Shown here: piece after piece, positions 8,384-45,396 of the stretch | How positions within the stretch are numbered: position 1 is the stretch's first letter | How the letters are laid out: every line of letters starts with the position of its first letter | DNA from: Oxynema aestuarii AP17 | GTDB taxonomy: Bacteria; Cyanobacteriota; Cyanobacteriia; Cyanobacteriales; Laspinemataceae | Assembly: GCF_012295525.1 (NCBI RefSeq) | Contig: NZ_CP051167.1 | Location: 5,877,299-5,941,298, forward strand | Direction of reading: 5' to 3' | DNA length: 64,000 bases | Position numbers and translations under genes: made by a program | The notes under the pieces: generated by a model | What the model saw: the letters and a program-made list of their open reading frames with translations, nothing else | Databases searched by the model: none | Told to the model about the DNA's origin: nothing

Positions 8384-9562
8384 ATGATGCCCAACGATCC
8401 CTATATTTGGATAGACCGCGCCCTCGATGCCATTCACCGGGCGAATTGGTATCGATCGCCGCAAGCGATTAGCGCCCCCGGGGCCGTGGTGGAAATTCAA
8501 GGGCAACGGCTGCTCAATTTCGCCAGTAACGATTATTTAGGCTTGGCAGGCGATCGCCGTTTGGTAGAAGCCGCCGTCGCCGCCACCCGCACCTACGGAA
8601 CCGGAACCACCGGATCGCGCCTGATTACCGGACATCGACCCCTGCATCGGGAACTGGAACGGGCGATCGCCGATCTCAAGCAGACCGAAGATGCCTTAGT
8701 GTTCAGTTCCGGCTACTTGGCCAATCTCGGCACGATCGCCGCGTTAGTCGGCAAACGAGATTTAATCCTCGGCGATCGCTACAATCACTCCAGCCTCAAA
8801 AATGGGGCGATTCTCAGTGGGGCCACGGCGATCGATTATCCTCACGCCGAGCTGCCAGCCTTGCGCGAGCTGCTCTCACAACATCGAGACCAATATCGGC
8901 GCTGTTTGCTGGTCACCGACAGTATTTTTAGTATGGATGGGGATTTGGCGCCCCTGCCCGCCTTACTCGACCTCGCCGACGAGTTTAGCTGCATGTTGCT
9001 GGTAGACGAAGCCCACGCCACCGGGGTTTTAGGGGCAACGGGAGCCGGGGCGATCGAAGCGTGCGGCGGTCGGGAACGCCCCTCGATCCAAATGGGAACG
9101 TTGAGTAAAGCCCTCGGCAGTTTGGGGGGCTACGTGGCGGGTTCGCGTCAGGCGATCGACTTTTTGCGAAACCGCGCGCCGACCTGGATTTATACAACTG
9201 GCCTCTCCCCCGCAGATACGGCGGCGGCGATCGCCGCGATCGCGATCGTGCGCGACGAACCCGAACGGCGGGCCCGACTGTGGCAGAATGTCGCATCTCT
9301 CAAACAGGGACTGGAACGGGCCGGAATCGAAGGGGTGTTACCGTCCGATTCGCCGATTATTTGCATCCAGATGCGCGACGCCGCCACCGTTCTTGAAGCC
9401 GGACGACTGCTCAAAAAAGCGGGGATTTTAGTCGCTGCGGTGCGCCCCCCGACCGTACCGACCAGCCGCCTGCGCCTCACCGTGATGGCGAGTCACACTC
9501 CCGAACAGTGCGCGGCGCTGGTTGACCGCCTCAAAGGGTTGAAAGAACGGGGATTGGGGTGA
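8384..9562 (+). CDS. bioF: 8-amino-7-oxononanoate synthase (PLP-dependent)
   Basis: Class-II aminotransferase-like: [19 protein letters not shown], and the PLP-lysine motif [16 protein letters not shown]. The ORF-track ORF starts at 8264, but the likely start is MMPNDP (~8384), giving about 393 aa. Confidence 0.8.
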
Positions 9563-10779
9563 ATGGGGAGTGGGCGATCGCCCCGGGGCTAAAGGTCGAG
9601 CGCCAATTTATCCGGATTGAAGTCGAGATCGCGCTTAAGATCGTGATTAAATCCTCACAGCCATTAACAACCGTGAAATTCATTCAAAGTTTAGCGATCG
9701 CCCTGAGTCTGGCGATTTCCCTCGGCGGTCCCGTTCCCCAGGTGGGCGCCACTTTACCCGTCGGCGCGATCGCCCAAACCAGCGCCGGAGATTTCTTAGA
9801 AAGCGCGATCGAAAAGCTCGACCGTCGCGCTTACCAGGAGGCGATCGCCGATTTGGACAAGGCGATCGAACTCGATCCCGATTTAGTCTCGGCTTATGCG
9901 GCGCGCGGGATTGCCAAACATCACCTGCGAGATTTTGGCGGGGCGATCGCCGATTTTAGCGAAGTGCTAGAACGCAATCCCAGCGATGCTGAAATGCTGA
10001 CCCTGCGAGGGATTGACTATCTTTATCTGGGGGATTACGACCGGGCGATCGCCGACTTCGACCGGGCGATCGAGAGCGATGGCGAACAGGCAGATATCTA
10101 CATGCTGCGCGCCGACGCGCGATCGCAGAAACTGGCGCTGGAACAGGCCCCGGCGCAACGCTACGATGTCGTCATCGCCGATTACGACCGCGCGATCGCC
10201 CTCGACGGCGACAATCCCCGTTACTATCAGCGACGGGGACAAACTCGGGCTCGCTTGCGACAATCGGAAGCGGCGATCGCCGATTATACCCGGGCGATCG
10301 AGCTGCAACCGACCAACGCCAACCTCTACGTGTTGCGCGGTAACGCTTACGACGATGCAGCCAACTGGCAAAACGCCCTCGAAGACTATACCCGGGCGAT
10401 CGAACTCAATCCCGATTTAGGGGATGCGTATTACAATCGCGGCGTCGCTTACCGTCGCCTCAACCAGTGCGATCGGGCGATCGCCGACTATAGCAAAGCA
10501 CTCCAACTCGACCCCGACGATTTCGGCGCCTACCTCAATCGAGGGGTATGCCACGCCAGCATCAACCAACTCGATCGCGCGATCGCCGATTACAACCGGG
10601 CGATCGAACGAAATCCCAACCTCGGCGAAGCCTATTATAACCGCGCCCTCGCCCAACAGCAGCTCAACCAAATCGAAGCCGCCCGCGCCGACTTTGAAAA
10701 AGCCGCCGATCTTTATCAACAACAAGGACAAGAAACAAAACTGCGCGACGTGCTCAACGCCCTTCGTAACTTGCCCTAG
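9559..10779 (+). CDS. TPR-repeat protein, probably exported
   Basis: About 10 TPR units ([30 protein letters not shown]…, [29 protein letters not shown]…) with a hydrophobic N-terminal segment ([16 protein letters not shown]). Its ATG overlaps the bioF stop (GTGAATGG). Confidence 0.7.
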
Positions 10780-15844: not shown

Positions 15845-15917
15845 GCCCCCATCGTCTAGAGGCCTAGGACACCTCCCTTTCACGGAGGCGACGGGGATTC
15901 GAATTCCCCTGGGGGTA
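15845..15917 (+). tRNA. tRNA-Glu (anticodon UUC), 73 nt, CCA not encoded
   Basis: GCCCCCATCGTCTAGAGGCCTAGGACACCTCCCTTTCACGGAGGCGACGGGGATTCGAATTCCCCTGGGGGTA: 7-bp acceptor stem, D-loop TCTAGAGGCC, anticodon loop CTTTCAC, T-arm GGGGATTCGAATTCCCC. Confidence 0.92.
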
Positions 15918-16070: not shown

Positions 16071-16143
16071 GCCCCCATCGTCTAGAGGCCTAGGACACCT
16101 CCCTTTCACGGAGGCGACGGGGATTCGAATTCCCCTGGGGGTA
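16071..16143 (+). tRNA. tRNA-Glu (anticodon UUC), second identical copy
   Basis: The 73 nt are identical to 15845..15917. Confidence 0.92.
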
Positions 16144-22243: not shown

Positions 22244-22672
22244 ATGGTATTGTCGGTTAACGAGCAAACGTTTAAAAAAGAAGTTTTAGAAGCAACCTCC
22301 CTAGTTTTGGTTCATTTTTGGGCTCCGTGGTGCGGTCCGTGCCGGATGATCGAGCCGATCTTGAGTGCGTTCGAGCAAGAATGGGGAGAAAAGCTCAAGA
22401 TCGTCGGAATTAATGCAGACCTCAACTTAAAGCTCGCCAGTGCTTATCGGTTGAGTACCTTGCCCACCTTGATTCTGTTCGATCGCGGTCAAATCGTGCA
22501 TCGCGTCCAAGGATTGCAAAACCGCGACGAGTTATATGACGCCGTGCGTTCCTTCGTGACGCTCGATCGCTTTGCCCGTCGGCCCGAGTCGGTCTCGGAG
22601 GTCGCGCAGGAGGGACTCGGCGAAACGATCGCCCCCGGTTCGCTCCCCAATTTAGTCAGCACCCCGCTCTAA
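22244..22672 (+). CDS. Thioredoxin-family protein with about 35-aa C-terminal extension
   Basis: Active site WAPWCGPCR; the last about 8 codons and the stop lie inside the structured repeat (copy A). Confidence 0.8.
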   Translation: MVLSVNEQTFKKEVLEATSLVLVHFWAPWCGPCRMIEPILSAFEQEWGEKLKIVGINADLNLKLASAYRLSTLPTLILFDRGQIVHRVQGLQNRDELYDAVRSFVTLDRFARRPESVSEVAQEGLGETIAPGSLPNLVSTPL

Positions 22673-23090
22673 AGAGACGGGGCTTCGTGCCTCTCCTTTA
22701 GTAGGGGCGTTTCGCGAAACGTAGGTAGGGGCGTTTCGCGAAACGCCCCTACCCAGCCTAAACCCTTCGAGGGCTACGTTATCGGTAAGGGTTAAAGTTC
22801 CTACCTTGGGATCCGTCGCCAGTCCCCTGCTCTAGAACCAAGCCGTTAAACCGTCGTACTAGGGGTAAGACCGTGCGGTTTGGAAAGTACCGACCGATAA
22901 CATTGGCGAGGCGCTATGACGCCGTGTACTTTAGGTGGCTCCGGCTCACAGGAGCGAGGGAAAAGTGCACCTCTTTTTGCTCCCCCACGAGGGGACGGCG
23001 ATTAAAACCGCCCGTGTCGTTTTTCCTCCCTGCGCTAAAGCGACAGGGTTTCCAAACAAGAGCGAAGATTTTCCGTGAACATTAGTGCTT
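22647..23090 (+). ncRNA. Structured ~440-nt repeat, copy A; candidate novel ncRNA or MITE-like element
   Basis: About 90% identical to 37347..37775, with indels and compensatory stem changes (ccctg…caggg vs ccccg…cgggg). Contains perfect hairpins (gtaggggcgtttcgcg aaacgcccctac; agcccttcgagggct); copy A has a 28-nt internal duplication. The short internal ORFs differ by frameshifts and many nonsynonymous changes. Confidence 0.45.
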
Positions 23091-35009: not shown

Positions 35010-35345
35010 GTGAACACCGAATTCAAACCGTCTCCAATCCTTGCCCTGACTCTAGCAACGATCGCCTCGGGAGCGATCGCGATCCAGTCCCCCGAGGCGA
35101 TCGCCCACGCCCCGAAATATCACCAGCGCTCTGAAAGTGAATCGAGTCCCTCGACCTCCCCTAAACCCGCATCCCAGAACGGATCCGAACCCTCTCAAGA
35201 CCCGACAGCCACCGTCGCCAGCCCTCACTCACCACGGACCGAACAGGGGAACTTACACCCGGGATGGAAAGAATCGGTTTTGGGTCTCCTATTCGGCGGT
35301 TACGGTCTTTTAGTCTGGCTCAAACAGCACCTGCATCAACCATGA
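35010..35345 (+). CDS. Small Ser/Pro-rich protein with N-terminal signal and C-terminal TM (doubtful)
   Basis: ORF only; low-complexity composition; overlaps the start of the next gene. Confidence 0.25.
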   Translation: MNTEFKPSPILALTLATIASGAIAIQSPEAIAHAPKYHQRSESESSPSTSPKPASQNGSEPSQDPTATVASPHSPRTEQGNLHPGWKESVLGLLFGGYGLLVWLKQHLHQP

Positions 35346-36337
35346 ACCACTCTTGTTTCTTTCGGATCGCCCGCTCGACGGCGATCGCCCTGTTCGCCGG
35401 AACTCTTACCCTGGGATGTTCGCCACGTCCCGAACTGCAGACGTTTTATCCGGCGCCGATGCCTTCTCCCTCGGTCCCGGCGACGCCGACGCGATCGCCC
35501 GCCGAACTCGCAGCACTGACCCGCGCCCCCAACTGGCAGCAGGACAACCACGTTCACGCCCTCGGCGTCGATCCGGACAATCCCGAAGTTCTCTACATTG
35601 CCACTCATTACGGCTTGGTACGACGCAGCGAAGACGGACAGTGGTATTGGGTCGGCGACGATCGCTCGGATTATATGGGATTTGCCGTGGATCCGGGCGA
35701 TCGCGACCGCTTTTATATGAGCGGACACCCGCCGACCGGAGGGAATTTGGGATTTCGAGTCACCGAGAATCGCGGTAAAGATTGGAAAACCGAGTCGATG
35801 TCCGGAGTAGATTTCCACGCGATCGCCGTCGCCCCGGCAGATCCGAAAACGATTTACGGATGGGCGACCTCCGGAGAAGTCGGCTTTTTCGTTTCCCGCG
35901 ATCGCGGTCAAACCTGGACCGAACTGCGACCGATCGGCTTGGAAGAGATGCCCTTTAATTTAATCGTGGATCCCGCTCGCCCGGATCGGGTATTTGCTAC
36001 GACCCGGGCGGGATTGTACCAAAGCAATAATAGCGGTCGCAACTGGGCGTTAGTCCCCAACACCGACACGGCGCCGATCGTCGGTCTCGCCGTTCTCGAA
36101 GACGGGACGGAAAGTACCCTCTACGGCTATCGCTTGCTCGACTCGGCTCCGGGACTGTATCGCAGTAACAATGGCGGTCAAACTTGGGAAACCTTCGGGG
36201 AAGGCATTGAAGGCATCGTCGTGCATTTGGTGCAGGCGCCGGGAAATTCCCAAATCCTTTATGCCGCGAACCAGGACAATGGTATCTTCCAATCGAGAGA
36301 TCGCGGCGCCACCTGGACGGCGATCGCGACTCCCTAG
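35342..36337 (+). CDS. Lipoprotein with BNR/sortilin-like beta-propeller (Ycf48-like fold) repeats
   Basis: Lipobox LTLGCS; repeated S.D.G.TW motifs (SEDGQWYW, TENRGKDWK, SRDRGQTWT, SNNSGRNWA, SNNGGQTWE, SRDRGATWT). Confidence 0.6.
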   Translation: MNHSCFFRIARSTAIALFAGTLTLGCSPRPELQTFYPAPMPSPSVPATPTRSPAELAALTRAPNWQQDNHVHALGVDPDNPEVLYIATHYGLVRRSEDGQWYWVGDDRSDYMGFAVDPGDRDRFYMSGHPPTGGNLGFRVTENRGKDWKTESMSGVDFHAIAVAPADPKTIYGWATSGEVGFFVSRDRGQTWTELRPIGLEEMPFNLIVDPARPDRVFATTRAGLYQSNNSGRNWALVPNTDTAPIVGLAVLEDGTESTLYGYRLLDSAPGLYRSNNGGQTWETFGEGIEGIVVHLVQAPGNSQILYAANQDNGIFQSRDRGATWTAIATP

Positions 36338-36806: not shown

Positions 36807-37346
36807 TTGTTCCGATCTCGCGCCGCTAAATTCATCGGCATTTGAATAAAGTCTTGCTCAACGTTGACCGCCATCACCGATCTCGATCGAGCGGATCGAG
36901 TCTTATTTAAGTCAGTATATAACGCCTTTCGATCGGAAATCATCCCCGATTTCTTGGATTTTTGTAAAGTTTAGATGGCGATCGACCCGCAATTTTCGAC
37001 CTCCTCCATCCAGGGCAATTACTAATCGATGGCGATCGCCCTTTTTCGGCGGCGCCCTAGTTATTTGGCCGTTATTTGGCCGTCGATGGCGCCGCGCGAT
37101 CGACGGGAGCAAGGCCCGATTCCGTGAAATGGGGTCGAGTGACTGTAGGCAGATCGGGGAACTGTTACAATATTGAGCCGCGATCGCCCCTCTCCTAGGG
37201 CCACCCCCGGCCTTGAGGAAGGGCGAATTGCCACATCTTACATAAATTAGCTAACTTGAATGAGACATCGTTCAGGTTGATGGTAAAGATGGAATATTAT
37301 ATAGAAGTCCCCTCGATCGCATGTAGAGTTAACCGACAGAGGATTA

Positions 37347-37775
37347 GGGTCAGCACCCCGCTCTAAAGAGACGGGGCTTCGTCCCTCTCCTTTCGTAGGG
37401 GCGTTTCGCGAAACGCCCCTACCCAGCCTAAGCCCTTCAAGGGCTACGTTATCGGTAAGCGTTAAAGTTCCTACCTTGGAATACGTCGCCAGTCCCCTGC
37501 TCTAGAACCAAACCGTTAAACCGTCGTCCGAGGGGTAAGACCGTGCGGTTTGGGAACTACCGACCGATAACATTGGCGAGGCGCTATGACGCCGGGCACT
37601 TTAGGTGGCTCCGGCTCACCGGAGCAAGCGAAAACTGCACCTCTTTTCGTTCCCCCCACGAGGGGACGGCGATTAAAACCGCCCGTGTCGTTTTTCCTCC
37701 CCGGTCTGAAGACACGGGGCTTCTAAACTTACCGGAGATTTCGTGAGAATCCAATGATGTCCCTCGACTCCAAAT
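37347..37775 (+). ncRNA. Structured ~440-nt repeat, copy B; ends at or overlaps the start codon of the NB-ARC gene
   Basis: See copy A; its 3' part (…ggagatttcgtgagaatcc) runs into the ATG at 37754. Confidence 0.45.
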
Positions 37776-39151
37776 ACCAGGAATTTCTCGACGCACAGGC
37801 CAAACATCACGCTTTATCTCATGCGGAATGGGAAGCCCTCAATTTAGCCGTAACAGGTCACGAAATTAGTGCCATTGCCGAACAACTGCACGTCCGACCG
37901 GAAGCGATCCGCCAGCGACTGAGTCAAATCTACCAAAAATTTAACATTCAAGGACGCGGCCCGGTCAAACTGGCGAAACTGCAAAAACTCCTGCAGCAGC
38001 GCTACCAAGAACATTGTATCGCCCGCGAAGCGGAACTAGGAAGTTGCTGCTGCGATCGCCTCGGGAGCGCCATTCCCCAGGATTGGGGCAACGCGCCCGA
38101 TCTGAGTAGCTTTTACGGACGCGAGGCGGAACTGGCCACTCTAAAGCGCTGGATCGTTGGCGATCGCTGTCGCTCGATCTCCATTTTAGGACTGGGTGGC
38201 ATCGGTAAAACCAGCTTGGCGATCGCCGCCGTCAAAGAAGTTCTCGAAGCGGGAAACTTCGACACGCTCATTTGGCGATCGCTCTCCCACGCACCGACCC
38301 CAGAAACTTTACTCGACGACCTGTTGCTGCGTTTCTATCCAGAAACCTTCGATCCGCCTGCGGCGATCGCCACCAAAATGACCCTCGTCATCGAAGGGTT
38401 GCGATCGCGGCGCTGCTTAATCGTCTTGGACGACGTCGAAACCATTTTACGCCCTGGCGACCGTCTCGGACGCTACCAAAGCGGCTACGAGGTCTACGGA
38501 CAACTGTTTCAACGCGTCGGAGAATCGCCCCATCAAAGTACCTTCCTGATTCTCTCTCAAGAAAAACTGCGAGAAATCTCCTTACTCGCCGGACCGAATC
38601 AACCGGTGCGCTTGCTCAAACTCGACGGACTCAAACTCGAAGATGCCCGACAATTGCTCCAGGAAAAACACCTGAGCGGACAACCGGAACATTGGCAAGA
38701 GTTAATCGATAATTATCGCGGCAATCCCCTCGCTTTAAAAATTGTCGCCACGACGATTCAAGAAGTGTTTGGTTGCAGCGTGGATCGCTTTATAAAATAC
38801 AAAACCTTGGTGATTAAAGACCTGTTTCTCGAAGTACTCGAACGACAATTCGAGCGTTTATCTCCCTTGGAACAAAAAATTGTTTTTTATTTAGCACAGA
38901 ATCAATATCCGCATTCTTTAGAACAAATTCACCTGCAAATGAAAACCACGAACTTGAGTCATTCCGACTTAATCGAACCGTTGGAATCCCTAAGCGGGCG
39001 ATCGCTGATCGAAAAAACCAAAAATCACGAAACCCACGAACCCCTGTTTACCCTCCAACCCGTGATTCGCAAATATGCGATCAAATACCACCTCGCCGAA
39101 ATGGAAGTCAGCGAGAGTGAGGGCGCCGCGATCGAACCGACCCGGTTATAA
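37754..39151 (+). CDS. STAND-type NTPase: N-terminal LuxR/GerE HTH plus NB-ARC domain, with no C-terminal repeat sensor
   Basis: HTH LSHAEWEALNLAVTGHEISAIAEQLHVRPEAIRQRLSQIYQKF; P-loop ILGLGGIGKTSLAIA; Walker B CLIVLDDVE; GNPLALKIV (GxP motif). Confidence 0.75.
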   Translation: MMSLDSKYQEFLDAQAKHHALSHAEWEALNLAVTGHEISAIAEQLHVRPEAIRQRLSQIYQKFNIQGRGPVKLAKLQKLLQQRYQEHCIAREAELGSCCCDRLGSAIPQDWGNAPDLSSFYGREAELATLKRWIVGDRCRSISILGLGGIGKTSLAIAAVKEVLEAGNFDTLIWRSLSHAPTPETLLDDLLLRFYPETFDPPAAIATKMTLVIEGLRSRRCLIVLDDVETILRPGDRLGRYQSGYEVYGQLFQRVGESPHQSTFLILSQEKLREISLLAGPNQPVRLLKLDGLKLEDARQLLQEKHLSGQPEHWQELIDNYRGNPLALKIVATTIQEVFGCSVDRFIKYKTLVIKDLFLEVLERQFERLSPLEQKIVFYLAQNQYPHSLEQIHLQMKTTNLSHSDLIEPLESLSGRSLIEKTKNHETHEPLFTLQPVIRKYAIKYHLAEMEVSESEGAAIEPTRL

Positions 39152-41216: not shown

Positions 41217-42131
41217 ATGAAACTCACTGGCTACCTCGGTTTGTGCGTCCAAACCCTTTTCGGACTGATTCAGTTTTTCGAGATCGCCCAACCCTTGAGA
41301 GCGATCGAGCATTCTCCGTCCCTGGCGGGCAACCTAACGACCGATTCCTGTCAGCGAATCGGACGGGTCTTGAGAGCGAACGACAATTCCCTGATGTCCG
41401 CCGAAAATACTGCCCTATGCGTCGAAACCGTCATCCAAACTCCCCCCGGTCGTCAATTGAGCGCCCTTTGCTTTGAGAATCTCGAAACCGTCGTGATTCC
41501 GGCAGGTCAGACTTGGCACGGTGGCGATCTGTGTCCCCCGGTTGCTCTCGTCTGCGACGAGGAACGCGGCTGCGCCCCTGAAGATCCGCGCAGCCCGGAA
41601 GAGCTACAAGACAGTCCCAGAATTGTCAGCCCGTACAACACGGCCTCGATCGACGATCGCCCTACCTTCTCCTGGAAGCACATCGCGGGAGTCGATTACT
41701 ATATCTTGAGAGTAGAAGATTTAAGCGGTAGCGACCAGAACCGAGAAAGCCGCTACACCCCCTCCGCCATGACAACGGGGGATCCGATCGAATTTCAATA
41801 TCCTTTTGACAAGCCTTTAACCCCAGGCAATGAATATATCACCACGGTCGAAGGGATTAGCAATACCAGCGATCGCCGGATCGTCAGATCGAGGAGTTAC
41901 TTAAAAATGCTCGACCGCAAAACCCACAGCCAGATCGATCGCGCGATCGCCCAACTCGACCGTCTCGACCTTTCCCCCCGCGAACAACTGCTCGACCGCC
42001 ACGCCATTTATATTAGCCACGAGTTGTTCGATCTCGCGATCGTCATGCTCGAAAACTGGATCGCAGACCATCCCCACGATTCCGAGATCGTCGGCTTACT
42101 TGAAGACCTCAAAAAAAACCAACAGATTTAG
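41217..42131 (+). CDS. Hypothetical Cys-rich protein, possibly exported
   Basis: ORF with a hydrophobic N-terminus; no family recognised. Confidence 0.45.
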   Translation: MKLTGYLGLCVQTLFGLIQFFEIAQPLRAIEHSPSLAGNLTTDSCQRIGRVLRANDNSLMSAENTALCVETVIQTPPGRQLSALCFENLETVVIPAGQTWHGGDLCPPVALVCDEERGCAPEDPRSPEELQDSPRIVSPYNTASIDDRPTFSWKHIAGVDYYILRVEDLSGSDQNRESRYTPSAMTTGDPIEFQYPFDKPLTPGNEYITTVEGISNTSDRRIVRSRSYLKMLDRKTHSQIDRAIAQLDRLDLSPREQLLDRHAIYISHELFDLAIVMLENWIADHPHDSEIVGLLEDLKKNQQI

Positions 42132-42191
42132 ATGTAAAATCTACAATCTACAATCTACAATTCCCAATTTTTTACACAGTTACGATCGCTC

Positions 42192-44912
42192 TCAATGCCA
42201 GTCTCCCGCGAGAATAAATGCCGCCCAATAGTAAGGTAAATGATAGTTTTGGTCGCGATATTGGGGATCGTGTAAAAACGTTAGTTGAGTCTGACGCAAC
42301 GCCTCCGCTTTCGTGAGGTTTGACTGGCGCCAATGGCGGTAAAACTCGCGCATGAATAACGCCGTCGAACCGTCGGCGACCTTCCACAAACTGGCTAAGG
42401 TACTGCGCGCCCCGGCTTGAACCGCGACCCCGGCTAGACCCAAACCGCCGCGACGGTCAGATTTCGCCGTTTCACAGGCACTCAAGACCAGTAAATCGAT
42501 CGGAAAAAGACTACTTTCGATCCGGCGTCGGACGAAGCGATCGAATTGACGGACGTTAATCGGGTCGTCGAAGGCGAGAATAAAGGTCTTTTGAGGATCC
42601 GAACTGAATTCACCGTGAGTGGCAATGTGAACGATCGAAAAATCGGCGTGATTGATTTGTTTTTCAAAAGCATCGCGGGTAAAGTCTTCGTCCAAAAGAA
42701 TCTTGCTGTCGCCGATTTCTGCTTGTACTTCCTGTAATTCTCTCTTTACCGCCGGGAGTTCGTCGAAGTTCGTTCCAAAACTCGGACCGTTTCTAACTCC
42801 TGCCAATAAACCCCGGGGTTCGGACGAAGTTGGGGGCGGATTCGAGTCGAGCTGCGATCGCAAACTAAACGCCAAGCTATATTTTTCAATTAAATATTGG
42901 CCTTGTTCGTCTTGCAACATGGCCATCGGAATAGTTTGTAGCAAACTGTCAGTAACAAACACTAAAGTTCCCGAATCGGGCAAGAGATCGCGAGTGGGTT
43001 GAATTAAAAGTTGGTAGAGTTCGCGAGCGGCTTTAGCGATTTGTTCTTGGTTAATACGAGGATTCAGTGAATACTCTTCTATAAAAAAATTTAAAGATTT
43101 AATTTGTCGTTTGACCGCCTGCCATGGGACTGAGTAATAGTAAAATTGCCGTTCGGAAGCATCGGGAACCTTGACTACGATCGCGATCGAATTGTACTTT
43201 TCTAAGACGATCGCGTACAGAATGGCTGCAGGGTTGTCTTGGAGGTCGGAGTCGGGCTGACTTTCGATCGATAAATCACAACCGAGAAAATTTTCTAATT
43301 CGGCCAACCCGAAGCGATCGATGAGTTGAGCCACGGTTGCGAGTCGATCTTCAAAGGGTTCCCATTTCAAAAGGACAAAAATATAGTCTTCATAAATATC
43401 TCGGACGGTTTCTTGAAAAGAAAACTGTACTTCTCTTTCTAGGGAAAGTAAATCTTGGCGAACTTGCTCTACTTGTTCGACTGCCATTTCGTAAGCGGCG
43501 ATCGCCATGGGAATTTCTCCGAGACTGTAGGCGATATTTCCTAACTGTTGTTGCCAGCGATAGCTCAGTTCTGGAGCGGCGATCGCTTCCGACAGTACCA
43601 CCGCTCGTTCGGTCCATTCTCGGGCGAGATTCAAGTTACTGTGTTTCTGGTAGAACATCCCCATCAGACCGGAGGCATAAATCTCGGTCTGAGTATGGTT
43701 CAATTGGCGAGATGCGCCCAGAGCTAACTCGATTTGGGCGATCGCCTCGCGACTGTATTGGCGATCGCCCCATTGCATTAAAGTATGGGCAAAATTGAGC
43801 CGCGCGTAGATTTCCTCAATCGCCGATAAGCCGGAAAATAATAACGGATCGGCGACTAACTGCTCCACGGTCGGTTCGATTTGAGCGTCGAGCTGGCGCC
43901 ACTCCTGAGTCAGGATCGCATTGTCATCCTGTCCGGCACCTTCCTCCTTCAACCACTCGGCGATCTCGACGAGCAAACTCAAGGCATTGAACAGCGCTTG
44001 AGAGCGGGTGCCGTTGGCACTTTCCCACTCATTCTCCCTTCGTCCTATACGGCGATAACGCTCCAGGGTTCCCTTACCCAATTCGATCGCTTTGATGCGA
44101 TCGCTGGATTGTTCGGTACGGTCGTAAAAACTGCGCTGGCGATTGTATCGCGCTCGTTGGGTGTTCGCCAAGCTCAGTTCGATAATAGCGATCTCCCGAC
44201 CCGAGCTCCACGATCTCGCCAGTTTCAGGGCTTGTTGCAACACCGTTTCCGATGCTTTCAATTTGCCGATCTCGCGCAAGATTTCCCCCAAATTCTGTAA
44301 GGCGAGCTTCTCGATTGCCGTGGAAAGACCGCAGTGCGACTCCGTACAAGCCAACTCGAACCCATCCTCTGTTTGGGCTTCACACAAAAGATCGCCCCCC
44401 TCAATCGGGAGAATCCCAACTAATACTTTACAAGCACGACGATATTGACCTTGGGTTTGGAAAACTACACTTTGGTTGATCTGGCTTCCTACGATCCCGT
44501 CACGATCGCCCAACTGGCGATACAGTCGTTCCGCTTCTTGCCACAACTCTAAGGCTTTTTGGTAGTTGCCCCGGGCAAAGTATTGGTGTCCCTCCCGGGT
44601 TAACAGGCGAGCTTGACGCCGCCATTGGGAGGACGGCGCGATCGTTTGCACCCGAAGCAGTTCCGAAGTGAGCGGGTTCGGGACGAACGGCAATGCGATC
44701 GCGCGTTGAGTCATTCCTTCGCCAAAAATTGTCCAGAGGAACAGGGCGGTTCCTCCCGCGATCGAAATAGAACGTATCCTAGCGCACCCCCGACGCTCCA
44801 GCCAAGGTTCTAGCATCTGAAATTTATAACAACCCCTGAATTGTCTAGAATCAGTCAACAGCGCACTTCTGACCCCTACTTGGCGCGATCGCCTCAGAAG
44901 TGACCGAACCAC
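42192..44912 (-). CDS. TPR-repeat plus CHAT-domain (caspase-like protease) protein
   Basis: 906 aa; TPR units in the N-terminal two thirds; C-terminal CHAT with HIATHGEF (His) and LLVLSACETA (Cys) catalytic dyad motifs. Confidence 0.8.
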   Translation of the reverse strand: MVRSLLRRSRQVGVRSALLTDSRQFRGCYKFQMLEPWLERRGCARIRSISIAGGTALFLWTIFGEGMTQRAIALPFVPNPLTSELLRVQTIAPSSQWRRQARLLTREGHQYFARGNYQKALELWQEAERLYRQLGDRDGIVGSQINQSVVFQTQGQYRRACKVLVGILPIEGGDLLCEAQTEDGFELACTESHCGLSTAIEKLALQNLGEILREIGKLKASETVLQQALKLARSWSSGREIAIIELSLANTQRARYNRQRSFYDRTEQSSDRIKAIELGKGTLERYRRIGRRENEWESANGTRSQALFNALSLLVEIAEWLKEEGAGQDDNAILTQEWRQLDAQIEPTVEQLVADPLLFSGLSAIEEIYARLNFAHTLMQWGDRQYSREAIAQIELALGASRQLNHTQTEIYASGLMGMFYQKHSNLNLAREWTERAVVLSEAIAAPELSYRWQQQLGNIAYSLGEIPMAIAAYEMAVEQVEQVRQDLLSLEREVQFSFQETVRDIYEDYIFVLLKWEPFEDRLATVAQLIDRFGLAELENFLGCDLSIESQPDSDLQDNPAAILYAIVLEKYNSIAIVVKVPDASERQFYYYSVPWQAVKRQIKSLNFFIEEYSLNPRINQEQIAKAARELYQLLIQPTRDLLPDSGTLVFVTDSLLQTIPMAMLQDEQGQYLIEKYSLAFSLRSQLDSNPPPTSSEPRGLLAGVRNGPSFGTNFDELPAVKRELQEVQAEIGDSKILLDEDFTRDAFEKQINHADFSIVHIATHGEFSSDPQKTFILAFDDPINVRQFDRFVRRRIESSLFPIDLLVLSACETAKSDRRGGLGLAGVAVQAGARSTLASLWKVADGSTALFMREFYRHWRQSNLTKAEALRQTQLTFLHDPQYRDQNYHLPYYWAAFILAGDWH

Positions 44913-45255: not shown

Positions 45256-45396
45256 TTCTCGAACTCGGGTAGATTTTAGATTGTAGATCTAAGATTTTAA
45301 GTTTTAGAGTTTATTGATTAGATCTCAAATTTTAATTACAAATTGCAAAGCGGGCAAGGATGCCCGCCCCTTTTCTAACTCCTGGCTTCTGCCTCC

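Follow-up and report, generated by a model that had tools for sequence, protein, structure and literature searches.

Two iscB-less repeats of Oxynema aestuarii, very probably derived from an IscB-type insertion sequence, carry a known omega RNA

In a 64,000-nucleotide stretch of the genome of Oxynema aestuarii AP17 (contig NZ_CP051167.1, positions 5,877,299 to 5,941,298; this whole stretch is called the window), a structured repeat occurs in two copies, A and B. We consider it very probable (about 0.9) that both descend from an IscB-type (ISC) insertion sequence of the IS200/IS605 superfamily as protein-less, non-autonomous elements and resemble palindrome-associated transposable elements (PATEs). 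Elements of this kind have already been described and are not new. A reading of the sequence alone had pointed to a novel structured RNA of 440 nt, and this false lead can now be removed, as the apparent novelty is a known omega RNA in a known type of transposon relic. What is added is a documented pair of recent insertions with their empty sites, one of which rewrites the C-terminus of a thioredoxin, the other being located 11 nt before the gene of an NB-ARC regulator. The two copies are as follows.

Copy A: 22655 to 23074, plus strand; iscB-less ISC (IS200/IS605-superfamily) derivative consisting of an omega-RNA end, a short linker and a distal end.
Copy B: 37349 to 37742, plus strand; iscB-less ISC derivative of 394 bp.

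The RNA part of both copies is the known omega RNA of IscB and not a new RNA. When the window was scanned at the curated thresholds of Rfam, both copies matched HEARO (RF02033; gathering score 83) with E ~1e-21, and the match covers the whole model (positions 1-211) in each of them. At permissive thresholds, no better Rfam family was found for either copy. Position 1 of the model, GTCAGCA, is the exact insertion boundary according to the empty sites described below, and both copies have the pseudoknot, the central stems and the conserved GAUAACAUUGGCGAGGCG segment. According to the account given by Meers et al., HEARO was found in 2009 by Weinberg et al. upstream of open reading frames (ORFs) for HNH endonucleases. 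It is the omega RNA that guides the nuclease IscB (Meers et al.; review PMC13565253; Goltsman et al.). The proposal of a novel non-coding RNA does not survive this result, since a match to a known Rfam family had been named as the finding that would speak against it and both copies exceed the gathering score of such a family.

HEARO match in copy A: 22724 to 22920, plus strand, 106.4 bits; a palindrome (see below) is used by the model as a substitute for stem P1.
HEARO match in copy B: 37349 to 37590, plus strand, 107.6 bits; the P1 pairs are flagged as non-canonical.

As separate candidates, a group I or group II intron, a riboswitch and other Rfam families were rejected for A and B, there being no Rfam matches.

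No iscB gene was found downstream of HEARO in either copy when two cyanobacterial IscB proteins were compared with the window by tblastn (best E 0.18), and it is host genes that follow each copy. In tblastn searches of the 64-kb window, with an IS608 TnpA sequence as the query for the transposase, none of IscB, TnpB and TnpA was found. Relatives that have the gene were found in other cyanobacteria. A search of annotated plasmids matched the HEARO core alone, with 71-77% identity, in plasmids from Nostocales. On the plasmids of Scytonema NIES-4073 (L016) and Anabaena cylindrica PCC 7122 (L018), HEARO is followed after about 25-35 nt by a gene for a protein of 427 residues, which is annotated as 'HNH endonuclease' in the former and as 'RNA-guided endonuclease IscB' in the latter. 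By a core-pattern scan of metagenomes, 14 more cyanobacterial loci were recovered, and all that are long enough are HEARO according to Rfam. One metagenome contig (L023) codes for a complete IscB of 424 residues with the Pfam domains RRXRR and HNH; the iscB gene is cut by the contig end in L020 and is truncated in L028.

In the full-length elements (L016, L018, L023), HEARO comes first, iscB second and the distal end last. The iscB stop codon of L016 and L023 is followed by a small hairpin (GACGGCG...CGCC) and its T-run; next come a bulged hairpin and TTTCC, with a short tail behind them. The last ~80 nt of A and B align with this sequence just downstream of the stop codon, and from this alignment we conclude that the repeat has the distal end of an IscB element as its 3′ part and the omega-RNA end as its 5′ part.

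Elements without the gene are common among the relatives. The 15 HEARO loci that were recovered by pattern comprise three with iscB (L020, L023, L028), ten without it (L013, L019, L021, L022, L024, L025, L026, L029, L031, L032) and two that are cut too early; this is a small, pattern-selected sample, in which a locus counts as lacking iscB if there is enough sequence or if the distal end is visible. Orphan omega RNAs thus outnumber IscB-linked ones in this lineage (10 versus 3 judgeable loci), which may merit a systematic look, as may the association of relatives with start codons that is described below. The same short linker is found at different loci in L019 and L025, as it is in A and B, and it follows that the short form itself has transposed. 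A scan of genome contigs with the 19-mer CGATAACATTGGCGAGGCG yielded 11 loci, one of which is HEARO (L013), the others being chance matches.

Two further loci were noted among the relatives. On plasmid pC052_A of Nostoc sp. C052 (L017, 3186-4462), a good HEARO (145 bits) is followed by an iscB that is frameshifted near residue 316 and for which no CDS is listed; as a pseudogene, it represents a stage intermediate between complete and orphan elements. In L022 (5140-5217, minus strand), the orphan HEARO lacks the normal GTCAGCA end, and its 5′ part is overlapped by a match to a group II intron domain (RF00029, 56 bits); an intron may have inserted into the HEARO end or replaced it.

A global alignment of A (420 bp) and B (394 bp) has 360 matches and 33 mismatches, which corresponds to 91.6% identity, and contains indels of 24, 1, 1 and 2 nt; the sequence-only reading had correctly noted identity of about 90% with several indels. 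In a repeat search of the window, the direct repeat is made up of three collinear blocks that recur 14,670-14,694 nt further on, and with MAFFT the two copies can be aligned across ~420 columns. Each copy has kept four parts: the omega-RNA end (the right end of the transposon in the terms of Meers et al.) with its GTCAGCA start and a bulged 8-bp hairpin, the HEARO gene, a linker of ~70 nt, and the distal end. The last of these comprises the small hairpin and its T-run as well as another bulged hairpin of 8 bp, and closes with ~26 nt of terminal sequence. In both copies the linker occupies the position of the ~1.27-kb iscB gene. Smith-Waterman comparison of the linker with L020, L023 and L028, and tblastn for iscB remnants within it, gave weak, gapped alignments only. 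The ends of the element, GTCAGCA... and ...GATTTTCC, are not inverted repeats of each other. Within the window, the 28-nt perfect palindrome GTAGGGGCGTTTCGCGAAACGCCCCTAC is present in the two copies and nowhere else. An internal duplication that had been reported for copy A at a length of 28 nt does exist, but it is a 24-nt tandem repeat.

24-nt tandem duplication, copy A only: 22700 to 22723, plus strand; a 24-nt gap in the alignment of A and B, with units at 22701-22721 and 22725-22745.
Palindrome GTAGGGGCGTTTCGCGAAACGCCCCTAC in copy A: 22725 to 22752, plus strand; it stands in place of the 3′ strand of HEARO P1 (GCTGAC), as seen in the alignment with relatives.
Palindrome GTAGGGGCGTTTCGCGAAACGCCCCTAC in copy B: 37395 to 37422, plus strand; in place of the P1 3′ strand.
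Small hairpin GACGGCG-ATTAAAA-CCGCCCGTGTC with T-run, copy A: 22994 to 23018, plus strand; in full-length elements it directly follows the iscB stop codon, and it matches L016 4460-4480 and L023.
Small hairpin with T-run, copy B: 37665 to 37689, plus strand; identical to that of copy A.

The ends of both copies are fixed by empty sites in close relatives. That of copy A, on contig L033, reads ...CCCCAATTTA/GTGAACATTAG... (in its longer form ...CGCTCCCCAATTTA/GTGAACATTAGTGTTTAG..., a slash marking the insertion point) and equals the window minus 22655-23074. That of copy B, on contig L034 of Oxynema sp. CENA135, reads ...GAGGATTAAG/GTGAGAATCCAATGATG... and equals the window minus 37349-37742. 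By these sites the limits of the repeat, which had been placed at 22647-23090 and 37347-37775, are corrected, although the repeat as such is real. Comparison of the two empty sites revealed no target-site duplication at either copy. Such duplications had been suggested as a sign of mobility, which is demonstrated by the empty sites instead. Because the sites are empty in close relatives, both copies are exact and recent insertions directly 5′ of GTGA(A/G), without target-site duplication. The features around the insertions are given here.

Host thioredoxin gene: 22244 to 22672, plus strand; its last five codons and the stop codon are supplied by copy A.
Left flank TTCGCTCCCCAATTTA of copy A: 22639 to 22654, plus strand; putative guide position of the IscB omega RNA, inside the thioredoxin coding sequence.
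Target motif GTGAA in the distal flank of copy A: 23075 to 23079, plus strand; TnpA target site and presumed target-adjacent motif (TAM) of IscB, as given by the empty site.
Left flank CCGACAGAGGATTAGG of copy B: 37333 to 37348, plus strand; putative guide-equivalent position.
Target motif GTGAG in the distal flank of copy B: 37743 to 37747, plus strand; as given by the empty site.
Host NB-ARC / LuxR-type gene: 37754 to 39151, plus strand; its ATG lies 11 nt past the end of copy B.

With copy A the thioredoxin ends in ...PNLVSTPL, whereas the 94%-identical orthologue at the empty site (P0002, contig L033) ends in ...PNLVNISV. It had been claimed that the element provides the stop codon and starts inside the last 8 codons of this gene; the stop codon is indeed provided, but the number of codons is five. 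The thioredoxin of the window is 100% identical to a protein listed by NCBI under Oxynema aestuarii. For the NB-ARC gene, the orthologue of Oxynema sp. CENA135 is 97% identical. Copy A is sense-oriented at the end of the thioredoxin gene and copy B is sense-oriented in the leader of the NB-ARC gene. When the two window copies are counted, RTGA(A/G) adjoins the clean distal end in 10 of 10 related elements. At the omega-RNA end, the aligned relatives always start with GT(C/T)AGCA and the flank is not conserved.

For cyanobacterial ISC transposons, 5′-GTCA termini, N/ATGA or GT/GA targets and a lack of duplication have been described, together with subterminal hairpins and mobilisation in trans by Y1 transposases (Kapitonov et al. 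2016). For IscB elements, HEARO was reported to abut the right end of the transposon, with the guide being 5′-adjacent to the scaffold and outside the boundary; transcription must begin outside the element, and the elements tend toward the orientation of the upstream gene (Meers et al.). The sense orientation of A and B relative to their host genes fits this picture. Protein-less PATEs that carry omega RNAs exist as well (Meers et al.). Traits of IS200/IS605 elements of the ISC type that are found in A and B are the subterminal hairpins, the absence of terminal inverted repeats, the insertion adjacent to a motif and the lack of an internal gene.

Some observations were made next to the empty sites. 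Relative to window position ~23130, the empty-site relative of copy A has ~55-80 extra bases between thioredoxin and ndhF (L033 3470-3525), which is another spacer indel. In Oxynema sp. CENA135, about 2 kb upstream of the empty site of copy B, a TnpB gene (OrfB_IS605 / Cas12f1-like) is found beside a shortened BNR-repeat gene (L034 1-538), while the counterpart in the window has a longer BNR gene (35264-36337) and no TnpB. From this difference it is concluded that IS200/IS605-family elements are active in the genus Oxynema.

The compensatory base changes that had attracted attention to the repeat are located in its subterminal hairpins. Both ends of the element carry a hairpin of one and the same shape: a stem of 8 bp is capped by a loop of 4 nt, and one base is bulged out beyond the third pair counted from the loop.

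Omega-end hairpin, copy A: 22662 to 22682, plus strand; CCCCGCTC TAAA GAG A CGGGG, a stem of 8 bp with one A bulged out, which also belongs to the HEARO consensus.
Omega-end hairpin, copy B: 37356 to 37376, plus strand; identical to that of copy A.
Distal hairpin, copy A: 23028 to 23048, plus strand; CCCTGCGC TAAA GCG A CAGGG, the stem with the compensatory changes.
Distal hairpin, copy B: 37699 to 37719, plus strand; CCCCGGTC TGAA GAC A CGGGG.

Between the distal hairpins of A and B, three of the 8 pairs differ and each of them is changed on both strands (ccctg/caggg versus ccccg/cgggg). The paired change that had been seen before is thus real, with three pairs affected and not one. Related elements provided 10 distinct hairpins, taken from both ends; in this set, 92.5% of the cells pair and double changes occur in 7 of the 8 pairs; none of 500 shuffles reached these values, and with shifted partners the pairing dropped to 35-45%. 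The TnpA transposases of IS608 and ISDra2 bind imperfect hairpins on single-stranded DNA and read an extrahelical base. In IscB elements the top strand of the transposon is the strand complementary to the omega RNA (Meers et al.), and on that strand the bulge would be a T. We consider the covariation to be genuine and most simply explained by a DNA hairpin that is needed for transposition rather than by a new functional RNA. As it sits in the hairpin of the transposon end, which has the same bulged form at both ends, and not in a functional RNA core, it gives no support for a new functional RNA and cannot be taken, as had been done, as the mark of a selected RNA structure. The case illustrates that compensatory changes can stem from a DNA hairpin read by a transposase instead of from a functional RNA.

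These features suggest how the repeat would behave. A and B would be moved in trans by a Y1 (HUH) TnpA via single-strand 'peel-and-paste' transposition, and recognition of the two bulged hairpins by TnpA would keep their pairing through double changes. Host transcription into the element, for copy A by read-through from the thioredoxin gene and for copy B in the leader of the NB-ARC gene, would produce an RNA in which the left flank, as guide, is fused at the 5′ side to the omega scaffold. Such an RNA could in principle direct an IscB from another locus to the empty site left by excision, and cleavage there would restore the element.

The RNA part shows signs of decay. P1 (in general form GUCAnnnn/nnnnUGAC) is the stem by which the 5′ domain is closed and the guide linked to the scaffold. 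In the relatives, it is formed by GUCAGC pairing with GCUGAC, whereas in A and B GTCAGC stands opposite CCCTAC and only 3 of 6 positions pair; in predicted folds, P1 forms in L020 but in neither A nor B. According to the cmscan alignments, compared position by position, there are 11 differences between A and B within 22724-22920. At paired positions of the core, pairing is disrupted once in A and three times in B, and one G-U pair becomes A-U. No double compensatory change between A and B was found within the HEARO core in these alignments. The RF02033 scores of 106-108 bits compare with 135-168 bits for the four full-length matches beside an intact or end-cut iscB (L016, L018, L020, L028) and with 93-157 bits for other orphans. 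Because P1 is replaced by the palindrome, core differences break pairs and the scores are low for the family, we regard the RNA part, from sequence comparison, as probably a decaying or drifting passenger of a transposon relic, and use of these two copies as sources of omega-RNA guides as unlikely. Scans for promoter and terminator consensus sequences around both copies found nothing above shuffled expectation.

The same data have to be weighed for the opposite possibility that A and B are working stand-alone omega-RNA genes. An IscB from elsewhere in the genome would load their RNAs in trans and cut the empty site after excision by TnpA, and the mini-elements would persist without the cost of a nuclease gene. 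The scaffold does pass the Rfam threshold, and host transcription would enter both copies sense-wise, as is required for the biogenesis of IscB omega RNA. The flank followed by GTGA(A/G) has the order of a target and its 3′ TAM, and GTGAGA fits NWRRNA, the TAM of OgeuIscB. Use in trans has been proposed for omega RNAs borne by PATEs (Meers et al.), and orphans form the majority among the relatives. However, the guide-adjacent P1 (GTCAGC/GCTGAC) is lost in both copies, core substitutions break pairs, the Rfam scores are low for the family, and by tblastn there is no IscB in the window. On balance, we judge such a function to be improbable, if worth keeping in mind.

The interpretation of A and B as protein-less ISC derivatives is itself exposed at several points. 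The sample consists of only two copies, and decay of the RNA is deduced from two recently diverged sequences, which the Rfam model still scores above threshold; the palindrome could serve as a substitute P1, as it does in the cmscan alignment of copy A. The presence of a helper TnpA or IscB in the O. aestuarii genome is an assumption, the sequence covered being the window and a few kilobases elsewhere. Among the best 120 of more than 7,998 homologues of the IscB from L023 in the protein collection none is named Oxynema, which is uninformative rather than negative. In addition, the mismatches are not evenly distributed. The distal 47 nt (23028-23074 versus 37699-37742) differ at 13 positions (28%), out of 33 mismatches in all; the 46 nt before them show no difference, and the remainder differs by ~5%. 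The presence of such a divergent stretch beside an identical one is not accounted for if both copies simply diverged from a single insertion-competent parent. In its distal end, A resembles L023 and B resembles L019 and L021. This pattern suggests that subfamilies have exchanged their transposon ends; selection exerted by different variants of TnpA would be another explanation.

Several relatives carry their distal end next to the start of a gene. The target motif RTGA(A/G) contains a start codon, and in 8 of 10 relatives with a clean or near-clean distal end a plausible host gene starts with the flanking ATG or GTG (the pattern was noted at the distal ends of L019, L022-L026, L029, L031 and L032). 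For seven of these eight genes there is support from Pfam (tatA, pgk, pdxH coding for pyridoxamine-phosphate oxidase, a response regulator, a phycobilisome linker, a P-type ATPase and a CYP38-like protein), with the domain starting at or near the N-terminus; the eighth codes for an apparent secreted protein. Many of the related elements have GGAG(G) within their last 7-12 nt. We tentatively raise the possibility, which we consider rather doubtful, that the iscB-less omega-RNA mini-elements of this cyanobacterial lineage are more than dead relics, namely mobile cassettes which insert exactly before start codons and bring their own ribosome-binding site. If true, such cassettes would be tolerated at otherwise lethal sites, and a guide-plus-omega RNA would be placed in the leaders of expressed genes, where it could be used in trans by IscB. 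The words 'start codon' do not occur in the text of Kapitonov et al. 2016. The two copies of the window do not show this pattern, as copy A lies inside the 3′ end of a gene and in copy B the GGAG is too far from the ATG.

The proximity to genes could also be read as domestication, with A and B serving as a 3′ tail or 5′ leader that regulates the adjacent host genes (the thioredoxin 3′ end and the NB-ARC/LuxR leader). Copy B does end 11 nt ahead of the NB-ARC start codon, copy A rewrites the thioredoxin C-terminus, and in relatives real genes have their start codons directly at the distal end, which often carries GGAG. On the other hand, both insertions are missing from very close relatives (flanks ~95% identical), being recent and not conserved there, and in copy B 19 nt separate GGAG and ATG, too great a distance for a ribosome-binding site. 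We give very little credence to domestication.

Practically no room is left for a new family of structured RNA unrelated to known ones, to which the strong predicted folds of the copies (z = -4.4 and -6.0) and the compensatory changes could have pointed, since RF02033 is matched with E ~1e-21 across the whole model, full-length relatives carry iscB, and the compensatory changes lie in a transposon-end hairpin. A small protein gene can be dismissed just as firmly: the ORFs of 67-70 codons at 22873-23085 and 37543-37746 are both open and have their 34 N-terminal residues in common bar a few substitutions, but they are separated by a frameshift, start inside the conserved HEARO core, and have no counterpart in seven related elements, in which ORFs of at least 30 codons are found in other frames and positions or, in two of them, not at all. 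As no ORF is conserved among nine elements, the earlier view that the ORFs share an N-terminus, diverge by frameshift and are non-coding is borne out.

Other repeats and genes of the window are listed for completeness. At 635-2171 there are 13 tandem copies of a 102-nt unit with ~90% identity, partly inside an ORF at 1085-1900, and a second, more divergent set of 102-nt (34-residue) repeats is found at 9801-10619 inside an ORF at 9559-10779; the proteins encoded by both sets are probably TPR-like repeat proteins. Two near-identical tRNA genes (15845-15917 and 16071-16143; 57.1 bits each) are 226 nt apart and have duplicated flanks (83 nt, 98%). An A/T-rich inverted repeat of 47 nt (42112-42158 and 45269-45315; 72% complementary) surrounds an ORF of 906 codons on the minus strand (42192-44912).

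In comparison with known systems, A and B share with the HEARO (RF02033) / OMEGA system the end-to-end match to the model and an RNA that begins with GUCA at the transposon boundary. They differ from it in the lack of iscB, in the replacement of P1 (GUCAGC/GCUGAC) by the 28-nt palindrome, in mismatches within the core stems and in scores of 106-108 rather than 135-168 bits. The ISC transposons of Kapitonov, Makarova and Koonin (2016) have the same 5′-GTCA, the same subterminal imperfect hairpins, the same position 5′ of (A/G)TGA without duplication and likewise a cyanobacterial host, but are ~1.3-1.7 kb long, whereas A and B have only 394-420 bp and the iscB ORF is gone. Classical miniature inverted-repeat transposable elements (MITEs), which are miniatures of DDE transposons, are also short, non-coding, repeated and structured. 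The designation as a structured MITE, which had been offered as the other option, was apt in that A and B are a structured, mobile and non-coding repeat; classical MITEs are nevertheless rejected, as terminal inverted repeats and target-site duplications are lacking and the chemistry of transposition is a different one. Two hairpin ends without a gene, presumable mobilisation by TnpA in trans and the possibility of an omega RNA (Meers et al.) are common to A, B and PATEs. While the examples of Meers et al. are related to ISGst1 and ISGst5 of Geobacillus, A and B are cyanobacterial and derived from an IscB element.

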